From the NCBI GenBank assembly GCA_963720465.1, contig OY970393.1, positions 1,536,001 through 1,600,000 of the forward strand: 64,000 nt of DNA, written 5' to 3'. Below are positions 22,660-44,888 of the stretch, piece by piece. The DNA comes from Methanobacteriota archaeon. Lineage in GTDB: Archaea > Halobacteriota > Bog-38 > Methanoflorentales > Methanoflorentaceae. Below the pieces are notes generated by a model that was given only the letters and a program-made list of their open reading frames with translations, had not been told where the DNA came from and searched no databases. Each line of letters starts with the position of its first letter. Position 1 is the first letter of the stretch. Made by a program: the position numbers and the translations under genes.

Positions 22660-24180
22660 CTAGATTGTGAAGTCGACGTCTCTCCAGTACTTCATGTAGA
22701 TATCATATACGTTCTCTGGCAAGGGATTTCGATAATGCCCCCACTCAACCCCTGAAACACCGTGTGTCAAGATGTAGGCTCTGTTTGACTGATCCCACTG
22801 AATAATGTCGCCGTACTGCTCGGCGAATTTCCTCAAATCGCCGAGAACGAACGGCTTTTGGAACCGCGACATCGAGATTTTCTGTCGTTTTATCCACTGC
22901 AAAAAGGAACTGTGAGTGAACATCAGTTGGTCGTCATTTCGCCCAGCGAGTAGGGGTTTAAGGGCTTCCACAACGCGAGGCGCCAGCGGCACGTAGTGGC
23001 TCATACGAACCTTGTCTTGCGACGAATCAACGAGGAGCACTGGCTTATCAGCAGCCAACGCCGTGCGGAACTGGCCTACCCTTAGCTTCGCCGTCGTAGC
23101 TTCGCTCCGTTGGCCGGTGTACGCCTCAAACAAAACGAACGCCGAATATTTTGCTGATCGCTCAGAACTGATCTCCCCTTCTCGTTGTGCTTTCTCTATG
23201 TGTTGGAGAACGTTGCTAATATCCTCCTTAGTCACGATACGAGAAGTGACGTTCTTGCGCTCTTTGACCGTTTTTGGAGGCTCTAAGTAGGCAGTGAACG
23301 TCTGATAGCGCGGTTCGGCGCGAGTCATGGCGAGGAACTTGAGGAAAGACTTGGCAAAGTTGAGCACTTTAGAATGAGAATCGGTCGATGTATACTCCTC
23401 TAGTGTTCGCTCCCGAAGCGTTTCGACAGTGTGATGTGATATCGCCCCTATCGTGCAATCCCACAATAGCTTTGAAGATCTGTTAATCCAATCCCGCGAT
23501 TTCTGAGCAAGGCCGCTCGTACGATACGTAACGTAACGATCAAGCTCATCCCGCGAGAAGCTAAGCGAATGCTCTTTTTGGTGAAGAGTACTCGAGGATA
23601 TGACTTTAGCCCCCTCCGCGCCGCTCTGTGTTTGCGTTGATGATGGCGTTGGTGCAGGTATCAGTGTTATTGGCTGAGGAGTTAGTGTCACTGCCTCGCG
23701 CTTCATTGCCTTCTTCGCTATTTCCTTTAAGTGATCGGCAATAGCTACACTATATTCAAACTCAGGATCTTCCACGAGCTCTTCCTCATCTTGAGGGGCA
23801 AGACGCGCCCAACGCGCTTCAGAATCGACCACAATATCGTCGAAATAAGCTTGCCAATCTATCGGCAGAAGGTCGACTAAGCGCGTAGACTCGTTCTCGT
23901 GTTGGGGTGCTGAATGAACATTTCCATTCTCGGTATATTGGTAGGAGGTCTCATCGTGCGCTTCCTCCTCTCCCAACCCTTCGCCTGCGGAGTTGTGCAA
24001 CTTTTCATCAAAGTTGTGCAACTTTTTGTCCTTGTTGTGCTCATCTTCTCCCAAGATTCTCACTACCGACAAACGGCTATCTGAGGTCTCTAACGTCCTC
24101 TGGGTCTCCGATTTGGAAAAGAATAGATGGGCTCGAGGCGATTCGAACGCCCGACCTTCGCCGTGTAAAGGCGATGTCAT
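22660..24180 (-). CDS. Tyrosine recombinase/integrase whose ORF begins inside tRNA-Val (true start uncertain)
   Basis: YTGQR (Arg), DK (Lys), GDLRK (HxxR equivalent), LTHG, HY (Tyr). The first codons (LHGEGRAFESPRAH) are the tRNA 3' half. Confidence 0.88.
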   Translation of the reverse strand: MTSPLHGEGRAFESPRAHLFFSKSETQRTLETSDSRLSVVRILGEDEHNKDKKLHNFDEKLHNSAGEGLGEEEAHDETSYQYTENGNVHSAPQHENESTRLVDLLPIDWQAYFDDIVVDSEARWARLAPQDEEELVEDPEFEYSVAIADHLKEIAKKAMKREAVTLTPQPITLIPAPTPSSTQTQSGAEGAKVISSSTLHQKEHSLSFSRDELDRYVTYRTSGLAQKSRDWINRSSKLLWDCTIGAISHHTVETLRERTLEEYTSTDSHSKVLNFAKSFLKFLAMTRAEPRYQTFTAYLEPPKTVKERKNVTSRIVTKEDISNVLQHIEKAQREGEISSERSAKYSAFVLFEAYTGQRSEATTAKLRVGQFRTALAADKPVLLVDSSQDKVRMSHYVPLAPRVVEALKPLLAGRNDDQLMFTHSSFLQWIKRQKISMSRFQKPFVLGDLRKFAEQYGDIIQWDQSNRAYILTHGVSGVEWGHYRNPLPENVYDIYMKYWRDVDFTI

Positions 24181-24201
24181 AACCAGCTAGACCACGAGCC
24201 C
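24128..24201 (-). tRNA. tRNA-Val (anticodon TAC)
   Basis: GGGCTCGTGGTCTAGCTGGTTATGACATCGCCTTTACACGGCGAAGGTCGGGCGTTCGAATCGCCTCGAGCCCA folds as a cloverleaf; 74 nt, no intron, CCA not encoded. Confidence 0.97.
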
Positions 24202-30739: not shown

Positions 30740-32080
30740 TCAAGCAAGCCTCTTGATCACGTCCGTTATCGAGACGGCATTAGCAAAGAAGTCGTTCCAA
30801 GCATCCTGTTTGGGATAGTTCCTAATGGTGTACGAGGTCGGGCTGATGTTAGGCAGCTCGTCCCAGACAAACGGGCTCGCTATGGGAAGCTCTGGCTCAG
30901 ATCGGGCAGCATAGGGTGCCACAGACGTCTGCATCGCGGATATCCTATTGACGTCGATGAAGATTCGTCCTCTTCTTTTCTCCTTGCCAAGCTCCGTAGT
31001 CAGCGCTGCGTCACTTTTTGCGAGGGTTTGCGCTATTTTTAGGGCGAAGTCCCTCACGCCGTCGTTATCAAGCTCGCGCGTAATGGGCACCGCAACGTGG
31101 TACCCCCTGCCCCCAGTCGTCATCACGTACGGTTTAAACCCCAACGCTTCGAGGAATCCTTTCAGTTTGAGTGCAGCTGATCGAAGCGACGGGAAATCAG
31201 GCAGCGACGGATCCAGATCAAATACCATTTCGTCGGGAATTGTGGGTCTGTCTGCTCGTGTTACCATAATGTGGGGAACGATGACCTGATTGCCGAGATA
31301 GACGATGCCTGCTTCATCCTTAACGATCGCATAGCAGGTCGTAGTGTCCTTGTGCTCGAGACACTTGCTCTCAAGCCAATCAGGAAAATAATCGGGCATA
31401 TTTTTTTGGAAGAATTTCTCGCCGCTGACCCCATCGGGAAACCTAAACATGGAGATCAGCCGGCCTTCTATATGGGGCAGCATCAGCGGCGCTATGTCTC
31501 GATAGTATTCAACAAGCTCAGCTTTCGGGATCCCCATATCAAGCTCCTTCTGGGGGTTCGTTACGTGGATTCGGTGCCCGCCCACGTCTATTTCGTCGCT
31601 AAGGTGATGCTCCTCCCCCTTCCTGACGATTATCCAGTCGTTGTCGAGGCGGGTGAACGCGTAGGTCCCGTTCAGTTTGTCACCTTTCAGGTAGATTACG
31701 AAATGGCCCTTTTTCAACGCCTCGTCAAGAGGCTGGACCTTCCCGTCTTTTATTGTAATGTTGACGAATCTTCCCTTATCCCATAGTTCGACCCTCCCTG
31801 CACCGTACTCACCTTCTGGTATCTCGCCTGAAAACTCGGCGTAGGCAACGGGATGATCCTCAGTCCTGATTGCGAGCCTTTTATCCCGCGGGTCGTCTGA
31901 CAACCCCTTTGGCACCGCCCAGCTAAGAAGAACCCCATCGTGCTCAAGCCGAAAATCAAAGTGTATCCGCCTCGCGCTATGCTTCTGTATCACGTAAAGC
32001 GACTGTTCGCTTTTCAGTTCGTCAGGCGCAGGCTCACCCGTCTTCGCGAAGTCTCGTTTCTTTCTATACTCGTCAAGCAA
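30740..32080 (-). CDS. NHEJ 3'-phosphoesterase (PE) fused to LigD primase-polymerase domain
   Basis: PE: QKHSARRIHFDFRLE, SWAVPKG, TEDHP, GEYGAG. Pol: RFPDG, FFQKN, VFDLDP, TTGGRGYHV, IFID, APY. Confidence 0.92.
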   Translation of the reverse strand: MLDEYRKKRDFAKTGEPAPDELKSEQSLYVIQKHSARRIHFDFRLEHDGVLLSWAVPKGLSDDPRDKRLAIRTEDHPVAYAEFSGEIPEGEYGAGRVELWDKGRFVNITIKDGKVQPLDEALKKGHFVIYLKGDKLNGTYAFTRLDNDWIIVRKGEEHHLSDEIDVGGHRIHVTNPQKELDMGIPKAELVEYYRDIAPLMLPHIEGRLISMFRFPDGVSGEKFFQKNMPDYFPDWLESKCLEHKDTTTCYAIVKDEAGIVYLGNQVIVPHIMVTRADRPTIPDEMVFDLDPSLPDFPSLRSAALKLKGFLEALGFKPYVMTTGGRGYHVAVPITRELDNDGVRDFALKIAQTLAKSDAALTTELGKEKRRGRIFIDVNRISAMQTSVAPYAARSEPELPIASPFVWDELPNISPTSYTIRNYPKQDAWNDFFANAVSITDVIKRLA

Positions 32081-32948
32081 CGCTTTGCACCTGATCTATC
32101 GTGCACTCTTCGGCAGGCTTATCGTCCCGCATCCGTACGAAAACTGGCCCCCGCAGGCGGTGGTCTTTCGTGTACTGCAGGTACCTCACTTCGCACACCT
32201 TATCGGGGACAACGTGCTGCACGTTCTTTGGAAGGGCGACGTTGCTGCCTGCGCGAACGAGCTCCGTCGCAAGGTCACCAAGGAGTGACTCGCTAAAGCC
32301 CGTTCCGACCTGACCGACGTACGTGAGGCTGCCTGCGTCATATAACCCGAGGGCCAGCGACGCTATTGTCCTAGTCTTCGTTACGTACCCGACGATAACG
32401 CAATCCACGGTCTTCTCATCCTTGATTTTGAGCCAGGCGTGCGACCGTCCGGTAACATAAAGGCTTTCCTTTTTCTTGGCCATGACGCCTTCCAGGTGAC
32501 GTGCTGTTACGACGTCCCAGAGTCGCTCACCGTCGGCAGTGCCCGGTATTGTCTGCAAGTTTCTCCCTTCTTCGACGACGCCCGCAAGGGTTCGTTTTCT
32601 CGTTGACAGCGGCAGCGTTTTTAGGTTCCTGCCTTCCAGTTCGAGTATGTCAAACGCGACGTACGTAGGCGGCCGATCGTGGTGCTTCCGTCGTTGCAGC
32701 AGCGAGAACGACGGGTTCCCTTTCTCATCGTAGATCACGATCTCCCCATCGAGCACGCAATCGGCCTTGATTAGATCGCCAAACCCAAGCTCGGGAAACT
32801 CACGGGTGATGTCCCGGTTGTTTCGTGATGTGAAGCAAAGCGTTCCTGCCTTTTTTTCGCAGAGCGCCCTGTAGCCATCCAGCTTAGGCTCAAAGATATA
32901 CTCAGTGGACTTAAGAATCGCTTTTGTGCCCGTGGCGGCGAGCATCAT
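32073..32948 (-). CDS. ATP-dependent DNA ligase (LigD ligase domain)
   Basis: EPKLDGYR, LDGEI, AFDIL, EGVMAK, WLKIK, VGTGF, RDDK. Confidence 0.95.
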   Translation of the reverse strand: MMLAATGTKAILKSTEYIFEPKLDGYRALCEKKAGTLCFTSRNNRDITREFPELGFGDLIKADCVLDGEIVIYDEKGNPSFSLLQRRKHHDRPPTYVAFDILELEGRNLKTLPLSTRKRTLAGVVEEGRNLQTIPGTADGERLWDVVTARHLEGVMAKKKESLYVTGRSHAWLKIKDEKTVDCVIVGYVTKTRTIASLALGLYDAGSLTYVGQVGTGFSESLLGDLATELVRAGSNVALPKNVQHVVPDKVCEVRYLQYTKDHRLRGPVFVRMRDDKPAEECTIDQVQSVA

Positions 32949-33709
32949 TTCAGGCTTGCCTTCAGTGCTTCAACGAGGTTCTCTTCTGTGGTGCGGCTGT
33001 ATTCCGTCTTGTGGATCGCAATCGTTTCCCCGCGTGCTTTTCTTTCGACGAGCTCCTTGAGGTCCTCCTCGAACGTATCGTGAAATTTGGTAATGTCAAA
33101 CTCATCGACCGTAATCTGGCTCAATAACTGTCTTGCGAGGTCCATCTCGACCTCAGAGAGTTGCGGCGGCTCATCAAGGCCATCGACCTGCATTATGTTC
33201 CGTATCTCATAATCATAATTCAGCGTTGTCAGAAGCAGGCCCTGCCTGTACGCTTCGATCGCACAGGCGTGTTCCTTTTCCCGCATGACAAATTTGCCGA
33301 TCGCGGTTTTGGCGGTCTGGTGGAGCACATTCCTGAATAGGAAATATGTCTTGTCCTTTGGTCGTTCTGGGCCCGCGTAGTAATGGGAGTTGAAAAAAAT
33401 CGGGTCGATTTGATGGGAATGAACGAACTCCACGATCTCTATCCAGGTGGATTTTTCGGGCCTGATGGAGTGAAGCTCTTCATCAGTAATGACCACGTAT
33501 TTATCTGGGGAAACTTCGATCCCCCTCACGATCTCGTCCTGTGACACCTCTTGCGTGCACGCGTCGCACCATTTCTTGTATCGTATCGGTGAGAGCTTGT
33601 CCTTGTGCAAGAGCCGTATTTTGAGTGGCCTCTGTTCGACCGCTGAGTAGAGTTTTACGGGAATGTTCACCAGTCCAAACGCTATTGATCCTTTCCACAG
33701 TGATTTCAT
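32945..33709 (-). CDS. ku: Ku DNA-end-binding protein
   Basis: WKGSIAFGLVNIPVKLYSA; C-terminal NLVEALKASL. Confidence 0.95.
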   Translation of the reverse strand: MKSLWKGSIAFGLVNIPVKLYSAVEQRPLKIRLLHKDKLSPIRYKKWCDACTQEVSQDEIVRGIEVSPDKYVVITDEELHSIRPEKSTWIEIVEFVHSHQIDPIFFNSHYYAGPERPKDKTYFLFRNVLHQTAKTAIGKFVMREKEHACAIEAYRQGLLLTTLNYDYEIRNIMQVDGLDEPPQLSEVEMDLARQLLSQITVDEFDITKFHDTFEEDLKELVERKARGETIAIHKTEYSRTTEENLVEALKASLK

Positions 33710-35675: not shown

Positions 35676-37064
35676 CTACACGCTTATCTTAACGACTGCG
35701 CTCGTCGATGCTTGATAGGAGCTGTTGCCGGCGAAAGTAGCGTAGTAGGTGCGCTCCCCTGCGGTGCTCCAACTTGTCGTGAGACTGATCTGGCCGTTTT
35801 TGTCGGTGGTCTTGGTGGTGTCGTTGTAGCGCACGTCGTTGAGGTAGTGGTAGATCGTAACGTTCTTTCCTGAGAGGAGCGTTGTGCCGCTCGTCAGAGT
35901 GGCTGTGAAGTTGACCGATTGGCCGACGGCGGGGGTGGAGTTAGACGCGGTGAGGGTGATCTTCGTCGCTCCCACGTTGATGAAGACGGCGCTACTCGTC
36001 GATGACTGATATGAGCCATCACCGAAGAAGACAGCGTAGTAGGTGCGCGTGCCGGAGGAGGCCCAGCTCGTGGTGAGGGTGATCTGGCCGGCGGAATTGG
36101 TGGTCTTGGTGGTGTCGCTGTAGCGCGCGTCGTTGAGGTAGTGGTAGATGGTGACGGACTGGGAGAGCGCTTTTGTGCCATTCTTCAAGGTGGCGGTGAA
36201 GGTGACCGACTGGCCGACGGTGGGGGTGGAGTCGGACGCGGTGAGGGTGACCTGAGTCTGGCCCTTGACGGTGACGGTGACGACGCTACTCGTCGATGCT
36301 TGATGTGAGCTGTCACCCGTGAAAGTAGCGTAGTAGGTGCGTGTGCCGATGGAGGCCCAGCTCGTGGTGAGGGTGATCTGGCCGGCGGAATTGGTGGTCT
36401 TGGTGGCGTCATTGTAGCGGACGCCGTTGAGGTAGTGGTAGATGCTAACTGATTTGGACGACAGGGGCGTTGTGCCACTCTTGAGCGTGGCAGTGAAGGT
36501 GGCTGATTGGCCGACGGCGGGAGTCGGGTTGTTGACAGAGAGCGATAGTTGGGTGAGCTCTCCCTCAAGATTGCTTATTGTAGACCTCAGCAGCGTGGCG
36601 TTCGTCGGATACACAGAGGAACTGGCCACATTGCCTGCTGGGCTGATCACGTAGAGGGTCGGCGTGCTCGCGACTTGGTACGCCGAACCCGCGCTGACCC
36701 CATCTCCGACGGGCCATGTTACCCCTGTCTCCTCGACATATTGCTGAATGGCCGATGCCGCGCTACCATCGACTTCGACGCCTAGGAACTGAACCTTCGC
36801 GTCGTTCTTGTAATATGTGTTGTACAGAGGTACAAGGGTATCCTTAGCGTCACTTTGACAATATCCACAATCCGCTCCAAAGAATTGAATGACGACGACT
36901 TTTCCTCGATATTCGCTTAGCGTCTGGGTGTGTCCGGAAAGATCGGTGAACGAAAAATTTGGGGCCGACTGCCCGTTCGAGAGAAGTGCAAGTGCCGGTG
37001 CTGCTGTAGCCGCGATCAGCAACGCGGTGATCGCGATCAATAGAACTATTCGCTTTGTTGCCAT
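35676..37064 (-). CDS. Secreted TlpA/redoxin (CGYC) fused to three Ig-like repeats
   Basis: Signal peptide, APNFSFTDLSG...YRGKVVVIQF, CGYC, TPTLYVI; three ~97-aa repeats. Confidence 0.88.
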   Translation of the reverse strand: MATKRIVLLIAITALLIAATAAPALALLSNGQSAPNFSFTDLSGHTQTLSEYRGKVVVIQFFGADCGYCQSDAKDTLVPLYNTYYKNDAKVQFLGVEVDGSAASAIQQYVEETGVTWPVGDGVSAGSAYQVASTPTLYVISPAGNVASSSVYPTNATLLRSTISNLEGELTQLSLSVNNPTPAVGQSATFTATLKSGTTPLSSKSVSIYHYLNGVRYNDATKTTNSAGQITLTTSWASIGTRTYYATFTGDSSHQASTSSVVTVTVKGQTQVTLTASDSTPTVGQSVTFTATLKNGTKALSQSVTIYHYLNDARYSDTTKTTNSAGQITLTTSWASSGTRTYYAVFFGDGSYQSSTSSAVFINVGATKITLTASNSTPAVGQSVNFTATLTSGTTLLSGKNVTIYHYLNDVRYNDTTKTTDKNGQISLTTSWSTAGERTYYATFAGNSSYQASTSAVVKISV

Positions 37065-37228
37065 GTTGTCTGTCTCCGAGTAAATACGCACGAGCCAAAA
37101 CCCGTGTCGAATAAAAAAAGAGCAGACTTAATAAGTGTTGCGATCCGCGCGAAAGCGTGCTCTCGTCAGAATCGCAACCGATTCTACGCAAAAAGGCTTA
37201 CCCGTGACGTCCGGTGCAACGACGCCGC

Positions 37229-39374: not shown

Positions 39375-41210
39375 TCACGAGACTGTGATTTTTAGCGGGG
39401 TACTTGAGGCGGCGACGTATTTCGAGGTGCCACTGTAGGTGGTCTTGAAGTAGTAAGTGCCCGACGGGAGAGATCCAGAGAACGCATAGACTCCGTTAGC
39501 GGTGGTGACGGAAGGGCTGCTCGAAGCGAGATAATACGTGCCACCTGAAGCCGATGACCAGTAGAGATAGACGTCGCCGCCTGCCACAGGAACTGGAATC
39601 GATTCTTTAGTTTTTAGGGTGCCAGAGATGATGACAGATTGGCCGACGCCAGGGCTGGACGGAGTGGCAGTTATGGAGAGCTGTGTGGCTAGTTTAGCAG
39701 ATGAGGACGTGACGGTAACCTTAACAACACTGCTGTAGGATGCGAGATAATCGCTAGTGGCGTTGTGGTAGAGGCGGAAGTAATAAGTCCCCGTGCTTCC
39801 AATAGCGCCTGCGAAGGAGCAGCCTCCGTTGACCGTGTTTGCGGCCAAGGCAGACCCGAGCTCCCACGTTTTTTGATCCGTTGATGCCTGCAACCAGACT
39901 GGCTCGCCCGAAAGCGGCGTCTTTGTTGCCGTCGTATAAAGCTGTCCGTAGAATAGTAGTGGTTGGTTGACGGTAGGGGTAGTATTGCTAACGGATATAT
40001 AAAGAACGGTTGACTGCGCACCGGTGCAGTTGATTGTTATTGTGCTGCTGACGCTTCCTAGGTACGTAACATTCCCAGCATAAACGCTGCGGAAGTAGTA
40101 GAGGCCTTGGCCGGTGACAGAGCCATAGAAGAGGTAATACCCATTCGTGGAGCCGTTCGTGCCGTTCCCAGTGGTGGTGGGCTGCGAAGAAGCGGAAGAC
40201 CAGGTCTTAGTATCCAGAGAGTATTGAAGATTAACGGGTGCATTGGGAATGCCGCCACCGGTGCCATTTGTAAGTGTGCCGTAGAGTGTAAACCGTTGGC
40301 CAGACGCAACCTTGCCAGAGACAGCAGAGCTACTTATAGAGAGTTGAGTGCCTATTCTGTTGCGCACGGTGACGGTGATGGGTGTCGAGTTGCTCGCGCT
40401 GTAACTCGCAAAACCGGTAAAGGAGGCTTCGTACTTATACGTCCCGGCTGTGGACTCTGAATAAGTGAGGGTAAAGTTGCCGCCCGCATCGGTGGTATTC
40501 GTCACGCCGGTGGAAACGTATGCGGCGCCGTTCCATCGGTCCAGATGAATGGTTTGATATGGGATTCCTGCGCCAGAGCTGTTCGTAAGGTTTCCCGTGA
40601 TATTGAACGGTTCAGTCGTATTGACCGTCGGTTTATCTACAGAGGCGGTGATCTGCGTGCTGTTCTGCGTCGCTCCGACGTTGATGGTGACGACTCTGCT
40701 TGTCGATGTTAGATAGGTGCTGTTCCCTGCAAACGTCGCGTAATAAGAACGTGTGCCATTAGAGCCAAAGCTCTCTGGGAAGTTGAACGTTGTGTACTTA
40801 GTGGTGTCGTTGTAGCGGATGCCGTTGAGATAATGATAGATGGTGACGGGCCCCGAGATGGGCGTGGCGCCGCTTATCAGGGTGGCGGTGAAGGTGACCG
40901 ATTGGCCGACGGCAGGCGCGGAATTGGTAACAGAGAGAGTGGTCTCCGTCGTGGCTGCCCCGACAGTGGTCACTTTCTGTGTGCTGCTTGCTGAGGAGGT
41001 GGCGTTCGCGCTCGGAGATGCGCTCGGCGTGGCACTGCCTGTTGTGGCATTTCCATTCAACGTGCTATTAGTCGCGTTCGTCGCAACAGCGCTATTCAAT
41101 GTGCCATTCGTAGTCGCGCTCGTCGCAAGAGTAATCGTTGCACACCCGGCAAAAAAGACGGTGATGAGGAGCAGGGCGACAAGTGGCGAAATGAGTTTAA
41201 CCGCTTTCAT
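39375..41210 (-). CDS. Lipoprotein with multiple Ig-like domains
   Basis: Lipobox FAGC, T/S/A linker with many NxT sequons, repeated beta modules. Confidence 0.85.
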   Translation of the reverse strand: MKAVKLISPLVALLLITVFFAGCATITLATSATTNGTLNSAVATNATNSTLNGNATTGSATPSASPSANATSSASSTQKVTTVGAATTETTLSVTNSAPAVGQSVTFTATLISGATPISGPVTIYHYLNGIRYNDTTKYTTFNFPESFGSNGTRSYYATFAGNSTYLTSTSRVVTINVGATQNSTQITASVDKPTVNTTEPFNITGNLTNSSGAGIPYQTIHLDRWNGAAYVSTGVTNTTDAGGNFTLTYSESTAGTYKYEASFTGFASYSASNSTPITVTVRNRIGTQLSISSSAVSGKVASGQRFTLYGTLTNGTGGGIPNAPVNLQYSLDTKTWSSASSQPTTTGNGTNGSTNGYYLFYGSVTGQGLYYFRSVYAGNVTYLGSVSSTITINCTGAQSTVLYISVSNTTPTVNQPLLFYGQLYTTATKTPLSGEPVWLQASTDQKTWELGSALAANTVNGGCSFAGAIGSTGTYYFRLYHNATSDYLASYSSVVKVTVTSSSAKLATQLSITATPSSPGVGQSVIISGTLKTKESIPVPVAGGDVYLYWSSASGGTYYLASSSPSVTTANGVYAFSGSLPSGTYYFKTTYSGTSKYVAASSTPLKITVS

Positions 41211-41742
41211 GATGTACCTCGCAAACAGCTCGTTTATGGTCAACACCAGGTAGAGTGTTATAAGGATTTCGATTTTATCATGAGGCTTTATTAGCTAAGC
41301 CGTCGTGGCTCTCGATGTGTTGGAGCGGTCTAGCTTTACTGAGCGCATAATAATGGGGACGGAGCCGACGCGTCTTTGGATTATTTGACGTTGCGCACTA
41401 CGCGCGGCATGCGCTCAAACGTCTTCAAGCGTCTTGAGCTTATTACTTTCACAACTTCCTCGCGAAAAACCCAACTTCAAGCAAAACCGAGGAGATCGCG
41501 ATGTTGCTGTGCCTTTCGTGTAAGCATTTCTATCAGCTCTGCCCGGTGCCCGAAAAAATGGAGCCCAAGCGGAGATTTGCCAGACACGCGTCCTATCGTC
41601 CCGAGGGGTGTGCGCAGTTTGAACCGGTTGAGTTCAAAAGAGAGCGAAGAGGATGATCTAGATAAATTGCCGCTTCGCGATCAGTATGAGGGTGCCTCGC
41701 GCCTCAGGCCCTTCTCAGTAGAACCAATCTCACGCAAACACT

Positions 41743-43497
41743 TCATCCCTTACCCGCCCAGCTCCGAGCAATCGCCACATCGACATCGAGCGGGACGTTA
41801 CGTAGAAACTCAGCTCCAGCCGCCCTCATGTGGTAGGCGACGGTCTCAGCTACCGCAGCAGCGCGTACCTGTTGCGCTTCGACCACCAACTCATCGTGCA
41901 CACAGCAGACGATTTTTGCCCTCGTAGAACTCAATGCTTCGTGGAGAGAGGTCAACGCGCGTTTCATAATATCCGCAGCAGTTCCCTGTACCCGCGTGTT
42001 CAACAGTTCGGTCAGCTTTGGTTCTTGGCCGTCCTCCCACCTGCGTATTCTTCCGCTCAAGGTCCGGATAGAGACCAAAGGTGTGGTGCTCACGCTGCGG
42101 TGGAACGCCCGCACGCCTGAGTACGCATCAAAGAAACGCCGGCGAAACTCGATCGCATCCTCAAGGGTAAAGTGCACCCCATAGATGTAATTCGCATATC
42201 GTCGTAAGCTCCGTGCACCCATTCCGTAGATGAGGCCGATGTTCAGCACCTTTGCAATAAGGCGCTCGTCCTTCGTCACCTGGTCAAGGGGCGTATCGAG
42301 CACGAGCGACGCGGTCAACCGATGCAAGTCCTCCCCCCGTTGGAACGCCCGCGTCATGGTCTCATCACCGCTGATGTCAGCGACGACCCGCAGCTCAAAT
42401 TGCGCGTAGTCGGCGATCACGAGGCGATGGTCGCGTGCCGCTACAAAACACTCCCGCACCGTACCGTCTCGTGGAATCTGCTGCAGGTTGGGATTGCGGC
42501 ACGCGAATCTCCCGTTCACCGTGCCGACCTGAAGAAAGGTGGGGTGTATCCTCCCCGTCAACGGATGGACGTGCTTAGGGAGTGCATCCAAAAAGCCGTT
42601 TTTAAGCTTTAAGACGTGCTTGTAGCGAATGTAGCGGGGTATTGCGGGATGTAGCTCCTCATACTTCAGCAACTCGCTCTCTCGTACGTTGCGGACGGGA
42701 ACGCCTGCGCTTCTGAAGGCGTGCTTCACCTGCTGGGGGCTACCGAGATTGATGGCGGCGACGTCACCGAGGGTACGCTGTCCCGACGTCGTCAGCTCAC
42801 GACACACCTCGTACGCGAGGTCCCCCTCCAACTCGTTATAGGTGTCCTGCAACGTTCGCCATTGTCCCATATCCATGAGCATGCCGTTGCGCTCCATCGC
42901 CGCAACCGCGGGGAGGCAGTTACATTCTAAGCGCATGCAGTCCGTGAGGCCTGCGCTCTCGATATGCTCCGATAACGCCGCATGGAGGCTCAAGACCACG
43001 CCGACAGTTTGCCCCGCACATTGAAGGTGTCGCTCGGTGAGGGTACCAGCTCGAAAACTGCCGCCCGTTTCCGGCATGTACTCGTCAAGATACGCCCTTG
43101 CCACGGTTTTCAGATCGTGTTTTACCTCCAGCCCGCCCTTAAGCAGTTGCGAGGCAAGCATCGTATCGAAATAGGGGCTTGAGAGGTCGAATCCTGCCTG
43201 ATAGAGGAACTTGAGGGCTAGTTTCCCATTATGCATTACCTTGACGGCCGGTGTCGTAAAGAGGTCGTGCAGCTTCGCCAATCCCCTCTGGGGCACCTGA
43301 GCACAATCAATAACGGCCGGAGGATGGCCGTGTACGACCAATTGAAGCGTTCGTATCCGATCAACAAAGGTGTCGGAACCCGTGGTTCCGAGAGCTAACG
43401 CTATGACCGACGAAGGTGCGATACGCTCAATGATGGCAGTAAGATGTTCTTCAGTGGCGATATATTCGTATTGCGGCGAAACGCTTCGCTGGGTCAT
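41743..43497 (-). CDS. Family A DNA polymerase (Klenow-like) with degenerate 3'-5' exonuclease domain
   Basis: TGRIH, NPNLQQIP, motif A DYAQFELR, motif B RLIAKVLNIGLIYG, QGTAAD, motif C VHDE; no 5' nuclease domain. ATG 43497 preferred. Confidence 0.93.
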   Translation of the reverse strand: MTQRSVSPQYEYIATEEHLTAIIERIAPSSVIALALGTTGSDTFVDRIRTLQLVVHGHPPAVIDCAQVPQRGLAKLHDLFTTPAVKVMHNGKLALKFLYQAGFDLSSPYFDTMLASQLLKGGLEVKHDLKTVARAYLDEYMPETGGSFRAGTLTERHLQCAGQTVGVVLSLHAALSEHIESAGLTDCMRLECNCLPAVAAMERNGMLMDMGQWRTLQDTYNELEGDLAYEVCRELTTSGQRTLGDVAAINLGSPQQVKHAFRSAGVPVRNVRESELLKYEELHPAIPRYIRYKHVLKLKNGFLDALPKHVHPLTGRIHPTFLQVGTVNGRFACRNPNLQQIPRDGTVRECFVAARDHRLVIADYAQFELRVVADISGDETMTRAFQRGEDLHRLTASLVLDTPLDQVTKDERLIAKVLNIGLIYGMGARSLRRYANYIYGVHFTLEDAIEFRRRFFDAYSGVRAFHRSVSTTPLVSIRTLSGRIRRWEDGQEPKLTELLNTRVQGTAADIMKRALTSLHEALSSTRAKIVCCVHDELVVEAQQVRAAAVAETVAYHMRAAGAEFLRNVPLDVDVAIARSWAGKG

Positions 43498-43875
43498 CTC
43501 TGTCTCCGCACGTTCAATACGTGTGTGAATACGCCCTTCGAGCCCCACCGTTGCGCGTACTGCCTTGCTATTTTGGACAAATCTCGCGTGTATCTTCGAA
43601 CGAAAACGGTGGGGTAAACGAGAGGGTATTGAGTCTCTTTCTCTAAAACTGTATGTTTTGTCCAAAAGAAGGATGAAAGTATTTGTCGCTAAAAGCGAGT
43701 CTTAGAACAGCGACGAGAACCGCGACGAAAGATTACCTCAGAATCAAATTATAGCGCATTGCAACCCGACTAGTCCAAGCTTAGATAGCCCCCCATAACG
43801 GGGCGCGAAATCTGAGGTATTAAGCTGCACTAGTAATATAGTGTGATCAACAGTAAAAAATAGAGGCGATGAAAA

Positions 43876-44061
43876 ATGCTAGATAAAACAATTTCTGAGC
43901 ACTTTGTCAACAAAACGATAGAAGTGTACTTCGGCGGCCGGCCGAATGAAACCCTGACTGGCAAGGTAGTCGGAAGTGCCGACGGGGTGATCATCATCGA
44001 GCATGACAACCGCCGGGATATTATCAACGCTGAGCGAGTGGTCGCTTTTTGGGAAAAATAG
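43876..44061 (+). CDS. Small Sm-like protein (MM0924-like)
   Basis: 61 aa; GKVVGSADGVIII, ending VAFW. Confidence 0.7.
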   Translation: MLDKTISEHFVNKTIEVYFGGRPNETLTGKVVGSADGVIIIEHDNRRDIINAERVVAFWEK

Positions 44062-44224
44062 ACGCAACTGACTCAGCCAATGTCCTCCCCTTCTTTTTGC
44101 TTTCTTTAATTCTGTACCCGTTTACGGGAGATTGCATGAATCGAGGGTTTAGAGTCGAGTGTGCTGCCTAAGAGCCACGTACGCCTTTATAGGAAGTAGC
44201 TCTCTCCCCCCCTCGCGAACTTTC

Positions 44225-44268
44225 TTGATCAAGTAAATTTGATGATTATCAAAAAAACTTAACTTGAT
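44225..44268. promoter_or_regulatory. Operator array of ATCAA/TTGAT half-sites
   Basis: ATCAA-N6-TTGAT at 44228 and TTGAT-GATT-ATCAA at 44239-44252, downstream of a TTTATA box near 44186. Confidence 0.5.
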
Positions 44269-44888
44269 AAAGGATGAAGTGCATGATGCCCATGGGGCGT
44301 TGGAGCTGGATTAGACAGGGACATGTGAGACAGTTTCATACCTGCGAAAAGATTGACGCGGCTGATGTCGGAGCTAAGATGGGTGCGGATCCATTAACTC
44401 CTTCCGATGGTCACACTGCTTGAGGCCGCGTCCCAGTCTTTTCGACGATGCACGCCTCTTCACCTCGGGAGATGCGTGCCTCTTCCCTGTTACCAGCTCC
44501 TCTCGAGTCCCTCAGAACGGCTTTGGCCGTCACTGTGCTTGAACAAGTTTTACGATCGGCTGTGAATGATTTGGGGGACCAATACGAACACAACGCAAAG
44601 ATACGAATCTGTGCAGCGATCTGCGCCAGCTCATCAGCCATCTTTAAAAGGAGAAGATAGATACGTTGTACAACGTAATCGCCGTAGCTCACGCCATTAT
44701 CGCGAAGAACGTCGCAGCAACTCCGAAGCTTCTGAACCGTATCTGGACCTCGATGATAATCTGAGTGGCATGGGTTCCCCCATACGACGATTCACGTGTT
44801 TTTTGAGAGATAAAGGCGCGAAGCAGCGTTGCAGATCTGCAACGGGCATTCAGTTCCGTGCTAGTCGCTGCATGAAACTTGTTCCACA

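Follow-up and report, generated by a model that had tools for sequence, protein, structure and literature searches.

An archaeal family A DNA polymerase with a lost exonuclease site, a clade-specific nucleotide pocket and a possible role in double-strand break repair

Family A DNA polymerases are textbook enzymes of bacteria, phages and organelles. During the analysis of a 64,000-nucleotide (nt) stretch of DNA from a Methanobacteriota archaeon of the family Methanoflorentaceae (contig OY970393.1 of assembly GCA_963720465.1, positions 1,536,001–1,600,000; hereafter designated the window), we found an open reading frame (ORF) on the minus strand (41743..43497) whose stop-free translation of 584 amino acids (aa) is a family A polymerase in which all four carboxylates of the 3'-5' exonuclease site and four residues of the nucleotide pocket are replaced. 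Judging from its residues, the ORF is predicted to encode an active DNA polymerase without proofreading, in which the exonuclease domain would serve only as a folded scaffold. The odd residues are a trait of a whole archaeal clade and not of one deviant copy. We regard the protein as probably a non-replicative repair polymerase, with fill-in or extension at double-strand breaks as its likeliest task. The host genome is a single 2.31-Mb contig that also encodes PolD and PolB, in agreement with the archaeal host named in the initial annotation, which a model had made from the letters of the window alone; no second family A gene is present on this contig, 41743..43497 being the sole copy. We take the host family to be a peat methanogen group related to the Methanocellales.

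The 584-aa protein was matched by Pfam DNA_pol_A (PF00476) with 266.2 bits against a cut-off of 34.3, and by DNA_pol_A_exo1 (PF01612) with 42 bits (E-values in Table 1), which places it in family A. The best sequence match in the PDB was the Plasmodium apicoplast polymerase (1e-81), followed by the Aquifex, Klenow and Taq enzymes. An AlphaFold2 model (pLDDT 91.2, pTM 0.89), in which the exonuclease-like domain was also confident (pLDDT mostly >90), showed the Klenow-type fold, with Foldseek TM-scores of 0.91 for the apicoplast polymerase, 0.86 for Aquifex pyrophilus Pol I and 0.85 for Klenow. A longer reading of the ORF from a TTG start at 43665 was rejected, since close homologues begin at the same Met and a GGAG precedes the ATG by 9 nt.

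Residue equivalences were taken from an alignment of the query with E. coli Pol I (polA of NC_000913.3) and 120 database homologues (122 sequences). The ExoI, ExoII, ExoIII, motif A and motif B sequences quoted in the initial annotation were all present in the translated ORF (Table 1). The exonuclease carboxylates D355, E357, D424 and D501 of Pol I are replaced by A35, G37, A94 and T164, respectively, and the ExoIII Tyr (Y497) by C160. The nucleotide pocket is changed at S707 (A365), I709 (F367), A759 (V417) and F762 (I420). Retained are the equivalents of D705, E710, R754, K758, Y766, D882, E883, R668, N845 and Q849, among them the family A catalytic residues D705, D882 and E883 and the motif B residues R754, K758 and Y766. 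Thus, the alignment with Pol I bore out the claim of dead proofreading beside an intact polymerase site.

Table 1 Features of the polymerase gene and of the end-joining operon (positions in the window; residues numbered in the query, those after 'for' in Pol I)
Feature	Position	Strand	Remarks
Family A DNA polymerase gene	41743..43497	(-)	P0001; exonuclease-like and polymerase domains, without 5' nuclease domain
3'-5' exonuclease-like domain, residues 10-177	42967..43470	(-)	PF01612, 1e-10; fold kept, catalytic site lost
ExoI remnant IALALGTTG	43378..43404	(-)	A35, G37 for D355, E357
ExoII remnant HNGKLALKFL	43204..43233	(-)	A94 for D424
ExoIII remnant CAGQT	43006..43020	(-)	C160, T164 for Y497, D501
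Polymerase domain, residues 237-581	41755..42789	(-)	PF00476, 5.8e-79
Motif A DYAQFELR	42388..42411	(-)	D363 catalytic; A365, F367 clade-specific; E368 steric gate
Motif B RLIAKVLNIGLIYG (contains AKVLNIGLIYG)	42223..42264	(-)	R412, K416, Y424 kept; V417, L418, I420 clade-specific
Motif C HDE	41890..41898	(-)	H534, D535, E536 intact
Ku gene, first of operon	32945..33709	(-)	Pfam Ku, 1.5e-40; 8.0 kb downstream of the polymerase, same strand
ATP-dependent DNA ligase, LigD-type ligase module	32073..32948	(-)	Overlaps the Ku end by 4 nt
LigD 3'-phosphoesterase fused to LigD primase-polymerase domain	30740..32080	(-)	

The database homologues fell into two groups, an archaeal one 57–92% identical to the query and, after a gap, a bacterial one of at most 45% identity. 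A707, F709, V759 and I762 (Pol I numbering, used hereafter for the pocket and exonuclease sites) occurred in all 29 archaeal-clade sequences covering the motifs, and the F709/I762 pair in none of the 91 bacterial homologues, which have Ile or Val at 709 and Phe at 762. Within the archaeal clade, D355, D424 and D501 were absent from every sequence aligned at these sites (26, 27 and 28, respectively), and E357 was retained in 12 of 26, these being the more distant members. The exonuclease site was lost before the clade diversified. All four carboxylates were found in 83 of the 91 bacterial homologues; the remainder comprised one protein that had lost three of them (P0098), two with Glu at 424 and five gapped fragments.

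A wider sample was drawn from 1.84 billion proteins as 150 representatives of 50%-identity clusters, to which the query and E. coli Pol I were added (152 sequences). The archaeal clade contributed two of the representatives, and the F709/I762 pair was confined to this clade (3 of 152). F709 combined with F762 was seen in two sequences and L762 combined with I709 in two others. About 30 of the 152 lacked at least one of the four exonuclease carboxylates, with some 15 more truncated or unaligned there, and some of these losses may represent alignment noise in fused proteins. Two bacterial proteins (P0198 and P0208) had another odd pocket, with F709, with the steric-gate Glu 710 replaced by Gln, and with Phe at 766. 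The F709/I762 pair was absent from all 80 viral loci (one has F709 with F762), and the closest relatives in a scan of viral contigs were at most 42% identical; a viral source of the archaeal variant was dropped on these grounds.

Selection was estimated by the Nei-Gojobori method as the ratio of nonsynonymous to synonymous substitution rates (dN/dS, omega) for 15 full-length polymerase genes. Within the genus of the window (55 pairs), omega was 0.243 in the exonuclease-like and 0.113 in the polymerase domain, and the sister genus (6 pairs) gave 0.229 and 0.126, respectively; dS reached about 0.5 within the genus and was saturated between genera. Both domains are therefore under purifying selection, the dead exonuclease domain being about twice as free as the polymerase domain, as expected for a scaffold. 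Because the odd residues recur in all homologues of the archaeal clade and are accompanied by purifying selection, chance is implausible as their cause. The initial annotation had named close homologues that keep the Exo acids, together with relaxed selection, as evidence against its reading; we found instead a clade-wide loss and omega values of 0.11–0.24.

The gene was surveyed in 60 related genomes, 23 of the same family and 37 of 17 other families of the phylum. It was present in 18 of the 23 (window's genus, 14 of 17; sister genus, 4 of 6), and the family genomes without a match are 59–86% complete. The single match in the other families (1 of 37) was set aside as a different polymerase, with 33% identity, intact exonuclease motifs and a motif A reading DYSQEELR. 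In a FastTree phylogeny of 111 sequences, built after the exclusion of ten fragments of less than 560 aa and a single protein with an intein, the archaeal sequences were monophyletic (24 of 24, support 1.0, stem 0.71) and nested among bacterial ones, with a 581-aa protein labelled Atribacteria as their sister (support 0.92). From these sequence relationships, we infer that one archaeal family probably gained the polymerase gene once, from bacteria. A distant second family A match (31% identity) lay in a 1538-aa frame of one metagenome-assembled genome of the genus (L022, G007:C9:8996-10513), which may be a fused mobile-element replicase or a contamination.

Among known enzymes, the best sequence and fold matches belong to the Aquificae-like or 'Hot Spring 1' subfamily (cd08639, PRK14975), which includes the apicoplast polymerase and Aquifex Pol I; it has the same two domains without a 5' nuclease, and the archaeal clade nests inside it. 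This subfamily has been reported in Methanomicrobia, outside prophages and with unknown role (Czernecki et al. 2023, PMC10201439), and a table of that report lists a working exonuclease for about 93% of its members. The presence of family A in Methanomicrobia has so far been noted only in passing. The query differs in the loss of all four exonuclease carboxylates and in the F709/I762 pair, seen in no other sampled member. Its best NCBIfam model, NF011539, scored 548.6 bits, below its equivalog cut-off of 640, and the functional exonuclease site expected of PRK14975 members (DxE, D, YxxxD) is replaced by A35, G37, A94, C160 and T164 (query numbering). The query is thus a divergent monofunctional offshoot of the Hot Spring 1 subfamily and not a 'bifunctional' member.

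The polymerase has a helicase-like partner, which is best seen in the sister genus. There, a DnaB_C protein of 610–698 aa is encoded directly upstream of the polymerase at all three loci with enough flank, the two genes overlapping by 4 and 20 nt at two of them, and a YbjQ-type gene stands upstream of the partner. The non-archaeal homologues of the partner are proteins of 862–906 aa, consisting of an N-terminal AEP primase, a Cys-rich middle and a DnaB_C domain whose GxGKT Walker A is intact; at 8 of 10 metagenome loci carrying such a bacterial homologue, the next gene, reached within about 50 nt, encoded an 817-aa polymerase with 41% identity to the query. The helicase-then-polymerase order of the sister genus and of these eight loci is shared with T7 gp4/gp5, the apicoplast PREX polyprotein and bacterial AEP-DnaB and polymerase pairs. 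The acidic C-terminal tail of the helicase-like protein is also kept, as in primase-helicase modules, and this tail has a role in T7. Unlike such modules, however, the archaeal partners lack the primase domain and the GK[ST] Walker A motif, and the two genes lie 236 kb apart in the host genome. Within the window's genus, 13 of 15 genomes have the partner; that of the host, outside the window (G000:C1:1340485-1342371; L055:1444-3474, minus strand), is a DnaB_C-derived protein of 676 aa with a Cys-rich middle domain, no Walker A and the acidic tail, and adjoins a zinc-ribbon and YbjQ_1 gene (L055:284-823). The omega of the partner gene is 0.33, and a search of the PDB gave no sequence match for the helicase-like protein.

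The simplest history would be one capture of a module, followed by the loss of its primase, ATPase and exonuclease functions. One peat methanogen family would have captured, once and from bacteria, a two-gene module in which the polymerase gene stood behind a gene for an AEP-primase/DnaB-helicase. On the archaeal stem, the polymerase would have lost the four exonuclease carboxylates and fixed the pocket changes S707A, I709F, A759V and F762I, and the primase domain and Walker A motif would have disappeared from the partner, selection thereafter retaining both genes. In the window's genus, the polymerase would later have left its partner and moved to just upstream of an operon for Ku, ligase and phosphoesterase-primase-polymerase.

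This operon encodes Ku, the ligase, the phosphoesterase and the primase-polymerase together (Table 1), a complete set for non-homologous end joining (NHEJ). It is compact, with overlapping starts and stops; archaeal NHEJ genes are described as usually scattered (10.1101/2023.09.30.560322), and compact archaeal end-joining operons are rare. Ku was found in 18 of the 23 family genomes. In 11 of the 15 polymerase-bearing genomes of the genus, including the host, Ku follows the polymerase on the same strand at a distance of 1.4–8.2 kb. In three of the four remaining genomes, the contig that carries the polymerase is only a few kb long; the last one has a polymerase fragment and no Ku match. The 8-kb interval between the two in the window holds genes for surface proteins and an HtrA-like protease, which are absent from relatives with a gap of 1.4–2.7 kb, and Pfam gave no match for three conserved genes that lie between Ku and the polymerase. 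Two secreted proteins of this interval (35676-37091 and 39375-41246, both on the minus strand) carry Big_3_5 Ig-like repeats and many N-x-S/T sequons; one of them is fused to a thioredoxin-like domain, and both are missing in several relatives.

These results point to the assignment given at the outset. Since PolD and PolB replicate the chromosome, non-replicative repair synthesis is the most likely function of the polymerase; since it was relocated upstream of the Ku operon, fill-in or extension at double-strand breaks is the likeliest form of it. The linkage to Ku and LigD supports a repair or end-joining role. Lesion bypass is a second possibility, as the search for Y-family polymerases gave no match in the family (0 of 24 genomes, versus 15 of 37 genomes of other families). 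The palm domain of PolX was not found in the host genome either, by a search with a weak control in which no control genome passed the cut-off.

Several points weigh against this assignment. The tie to NHEJ is linkage in one genus; in the sister genus, the polymerase and Ku are unlinked, lying 1.35 Mb apart in one genome (G018). The linkage goes back to one relocation event, passed on to related genomes; in a genome of 2.3 Mb, an arrival within 8 kb of Ku has a chance of less than 1%, yet the event is single. Because the intervening genes vary, co-transcription of the polymerase with Ku is unlikely, and the operon already has a polymerase of its own in the LigD primase-polymerase domain. The lack of a Y-family polymerase is weak evidence, about half of the other families also being without a match. 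Three copies of the partner (G009, G005 and G003) have in-frame stops or are split, and the polymerase copy of one sister-genus genome (G022; L019 / L039) is split into two frames of 206 and 447 aa; these could represent real decay or assembly errors. Contigs from four peat RNA libraries (four studies) cover the polymerase gene at about 95% identity, but they come from related strains, may reflect DNA carry-over and give neither strand nor ends, and so are only weakly consistent with transcription. Polymerase activity, fidelity and the loss of exonuclease activity are all deduced from residues and should be read as predictions. Finally, the effects of single mutations at the pocket positions, known from the E. 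coli and Taq enzymes, are opposite in sign.

On the one side, Klenow I709F is described as a mutator with normal synthesis activity, and I709F combined with exonuclease loss in Pol I as raising the mutation rate about 400-fold (PMC7708058, citing Shinkai and Loeb 2001). On the other, Taq F667L (equivalent to position 762) is reported to work more slowly and with fewer errors (PMC6302109, citing Suzuki et al. 2000), a lower speed and a higher measured fidelity are listed for F667M and F667A (PMC11666352, Table 1), and the Taq error rate is stated not to be raised by non-hydrophilic substitutions of I614, equivalent to position 709 (PMC11666352, citing Patel et al. 2001). The laboratory mutator, Klenow exo-minus I709F, shares with the query the missing proofreading and the Phe at 709; the query differs from it in also having F762I, A759V and S707A and in its long purifying selection. 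The initial annotation had called the pocket mutator-like. The Klenow mutant speaks for this label and the three Taq mutants speak against it, which leaves it half supported, and the annotation's own caveat that the I/F exchange could be compensatory is at least as likely, the exchange being reciprocal and fixed in 29 of 29 sequences. The fidelity of the polymerase must presumably lie below that of a proofreading enzyme. The natural F/I pair could lower base or sugar selectivity further or be internally compensated; because the exchange is reciprocal and the conservation absolute, we lean towards a pocket that is selected and at least partly compensated.

The same data bear on the alternative that the protein is an ordinary gap-filling polymerase like Taq or Bst, whose F709/I762 pair is a neutral or compensating repacking with unremarkable fidelity and sugar selectivity and without any special tie to end joining. 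This explanation appears less probable, although much would fit it: the reciprocal exchange retains one aromatic and one branched aliphatic side chain, both positions (I614 and F667 in Taq) are described as touching the incoming nucleotide (PMC6345897), the published single-mutant effects oppose each other (PMC7708058, PMC6302109, PMC11666352), Leu is given as a common natural variant at the motif B position 762 (PMC10201439, PMC6302109), and the loss of exonuclease residues recurs in the subfamily, as in the roughly 30 sequences of the wider sample. The large fragments of Taq and Bst likewise contain a vestigial, dead 3'-5' exonuclease scaffold and resemble the model with TM-scores of 0.73–0.82; they keep I709 and F762, and a 5' nuclease domain is present in them or in the proteins from which they derive. 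Against mere repacking, four pocket positions changed together on a long stem and thereafter stayed fixed in all 29 sequences, which resembles a shift to a new optimum, the same state occurs in no other sampled lineage, and the relocation beside Ku (about 16 kb of 2.3 Mb) would need a separate explanation by chance. A further natural parallel is offered by the actinobacterial APEX 1 and 2 polymerases, which are described as exonuclease-inactive, with Leu at 762, coexisting with the main replicase and probably acting in repair (PMC10201439); compared here by description only, they belong to another subfamily (the 'broken thumb' supercluster) and another domain of life and have Leu, not Ile, with no change at 709 mentioned for them (PMC10201439). 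We found no published description of Ile at 762 or of its pairing with F709. Positions 709 and 762 are among the best-studied for the fidelity and sugar selectivity of Pol I, and a possible epistatic coupling between them becomes testable in this enzyme. A polymerase that is exonuclease-free by nature and has an unusual pocket may be of interest for enzyme engineering as well.

A bolder form of the break-repair assignment is an independent Pol theta-like solution, in which a captured mobile-element replicase, with its proofreading killed, its pocket retuned for relaxed base or sugar selection and a dead DnaB-type accessory, would have been recruited to Ku/LigD for error-prone or ribonucleotide-tolerant extension of paired break ends. 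We consider this unlikely. With Pol theta and Pol nu, the query shares a dead exonuclease-like domain, a suggested link to break repair and a helicase-type associate; it is unrelated to them at the subfamily level and, at 584 aa, has neither a fused SF2 helicase nor large insertion loops. Pol theta was absent among the listed PDB sequence matches and among the top fold matches, and it carries Tyr at the 762 position. The end-joining idea of the initial annotation gains support from the linkage to Ku/LigD in the genus; features specific to Pol theta (a helicase fusion, room for large insertions) were not found. The use of an additional polymerase at breaks by archaea that have Ku/LigD can now be put to the test.

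Prokaryotic end-joining polymerases generally prefer ribonucleotides. An altered sugar or template specificity, that is, looser discrimination of the 2'-OH or acceptance of RNA templates, with ribonucleotide use or reverse transcription at breaks, would agree with the Ku/LigD neighbourhood, with the reported readier acceptance of ribonucleotides by Klenow I709F (PMC4854868) and with the RNA templates that a viral member of the subfamily, '3173 Pol', is reported to take (PMC10201439). Nevertheless, the steric-gate Glu (E368) and Y424 of the query are intact, and we judge this explanation improbable. The PADLOC model 'RTasPolA' matched residues 309-559 (1e-30), which probably represents generic family A similarity; PADLOC gave no other match for the polymerase and none for the partner, and a reading of the locus as a defence system was dropped.

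The bacterial relatives of the module have a mobile-element flavour, their neighbours (L062, L060, L064 and L066) including a beta-clamp-like gene, a PIF1/AAA_30 helicase, a helix-turn-helix protein, a YaaC-like protein, ParE and a transposase. At one locus, an RdRP-like protein stands beside the primase-helicase and polymerase module, and in L066 the helicase gene is flanked on both sides by polymerase genes. Together with the two-gene order kept in the sister genus, this setting could suggest that the archaeal polymerase and partner still copy an integrated or extrachromosomal element and do not serve the host. Such a role is very improbable, since the polymerase occupies a syntenic chromosomal site across the genus and is present in 18 of 23 family genomes, no integrase, capsid or plasmid genes surround it, the partner is without its primase domain and Walker A, and no relative on a viral contig exceeds 42% identity. 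A decaying relic that is turning into a pseudogene and gave up its exonuclease site first might be read from the split G022 copy and the roughly twofold faster evolution of the exonuclease domain, but it is contradicted by the omega values, by 15 full-length genes with an open frame and by the invariance of all catalytic residues of the polymerase, and can be dismissed.

Collectively, four features appear to be new, namely the fixed pocket (F709/I762/A707/V759), the absence of a working exonuclease site throughout the family, the degenerate partner of helicase type and the linkage to Ku/LigD; no description of this variant or of its gene context was found in the published literature, although the supplements of PMC10201439 might list these sequences. 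The system amounts to a dated natural experiment comprising the capture of a module, the loss of proofreading, the reciprocal exchange at 709 and 762, the decay of the partner to an ATPase-less protein and the relocation beside an end-joining operon. The host lineage is a major group of peatland methanogens, which makes its mutation and repair biology of ecological interest.

Some minor features of the host and of the surroundings of the polymerase gene may be added. The PolB match of the host (G000:C1:2098812-2100148; L024, L025) consists of two adjacent open frames of 595 and 232 aa, and the family B polymerase may thus be split or interrupted. A scan for sigma-70 promoters and terminators around the polymerase gene gave matches at chance level only, and the sole match of Rfam and tRNA scans was a tRNA-Val at 24128-24201. 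Divergent from the polymerase gene is a DUF6897 gene of 61 aa (43876-44061, plus strand), beyond which about 800 nt (44062-44888) hold no convincing ORF. Convergent to the polymerase gene is a Cys-rich ORF of 51 aa (41501-41656, plus strand), for which Pfam and Rfam searches gave no match. The block of about 200 nt that holds this ORF (about 41440-41640) is near-invariant in eight genomes of the genus, its conservation far exceeding that of the synonymous sites of the polymerase gene.

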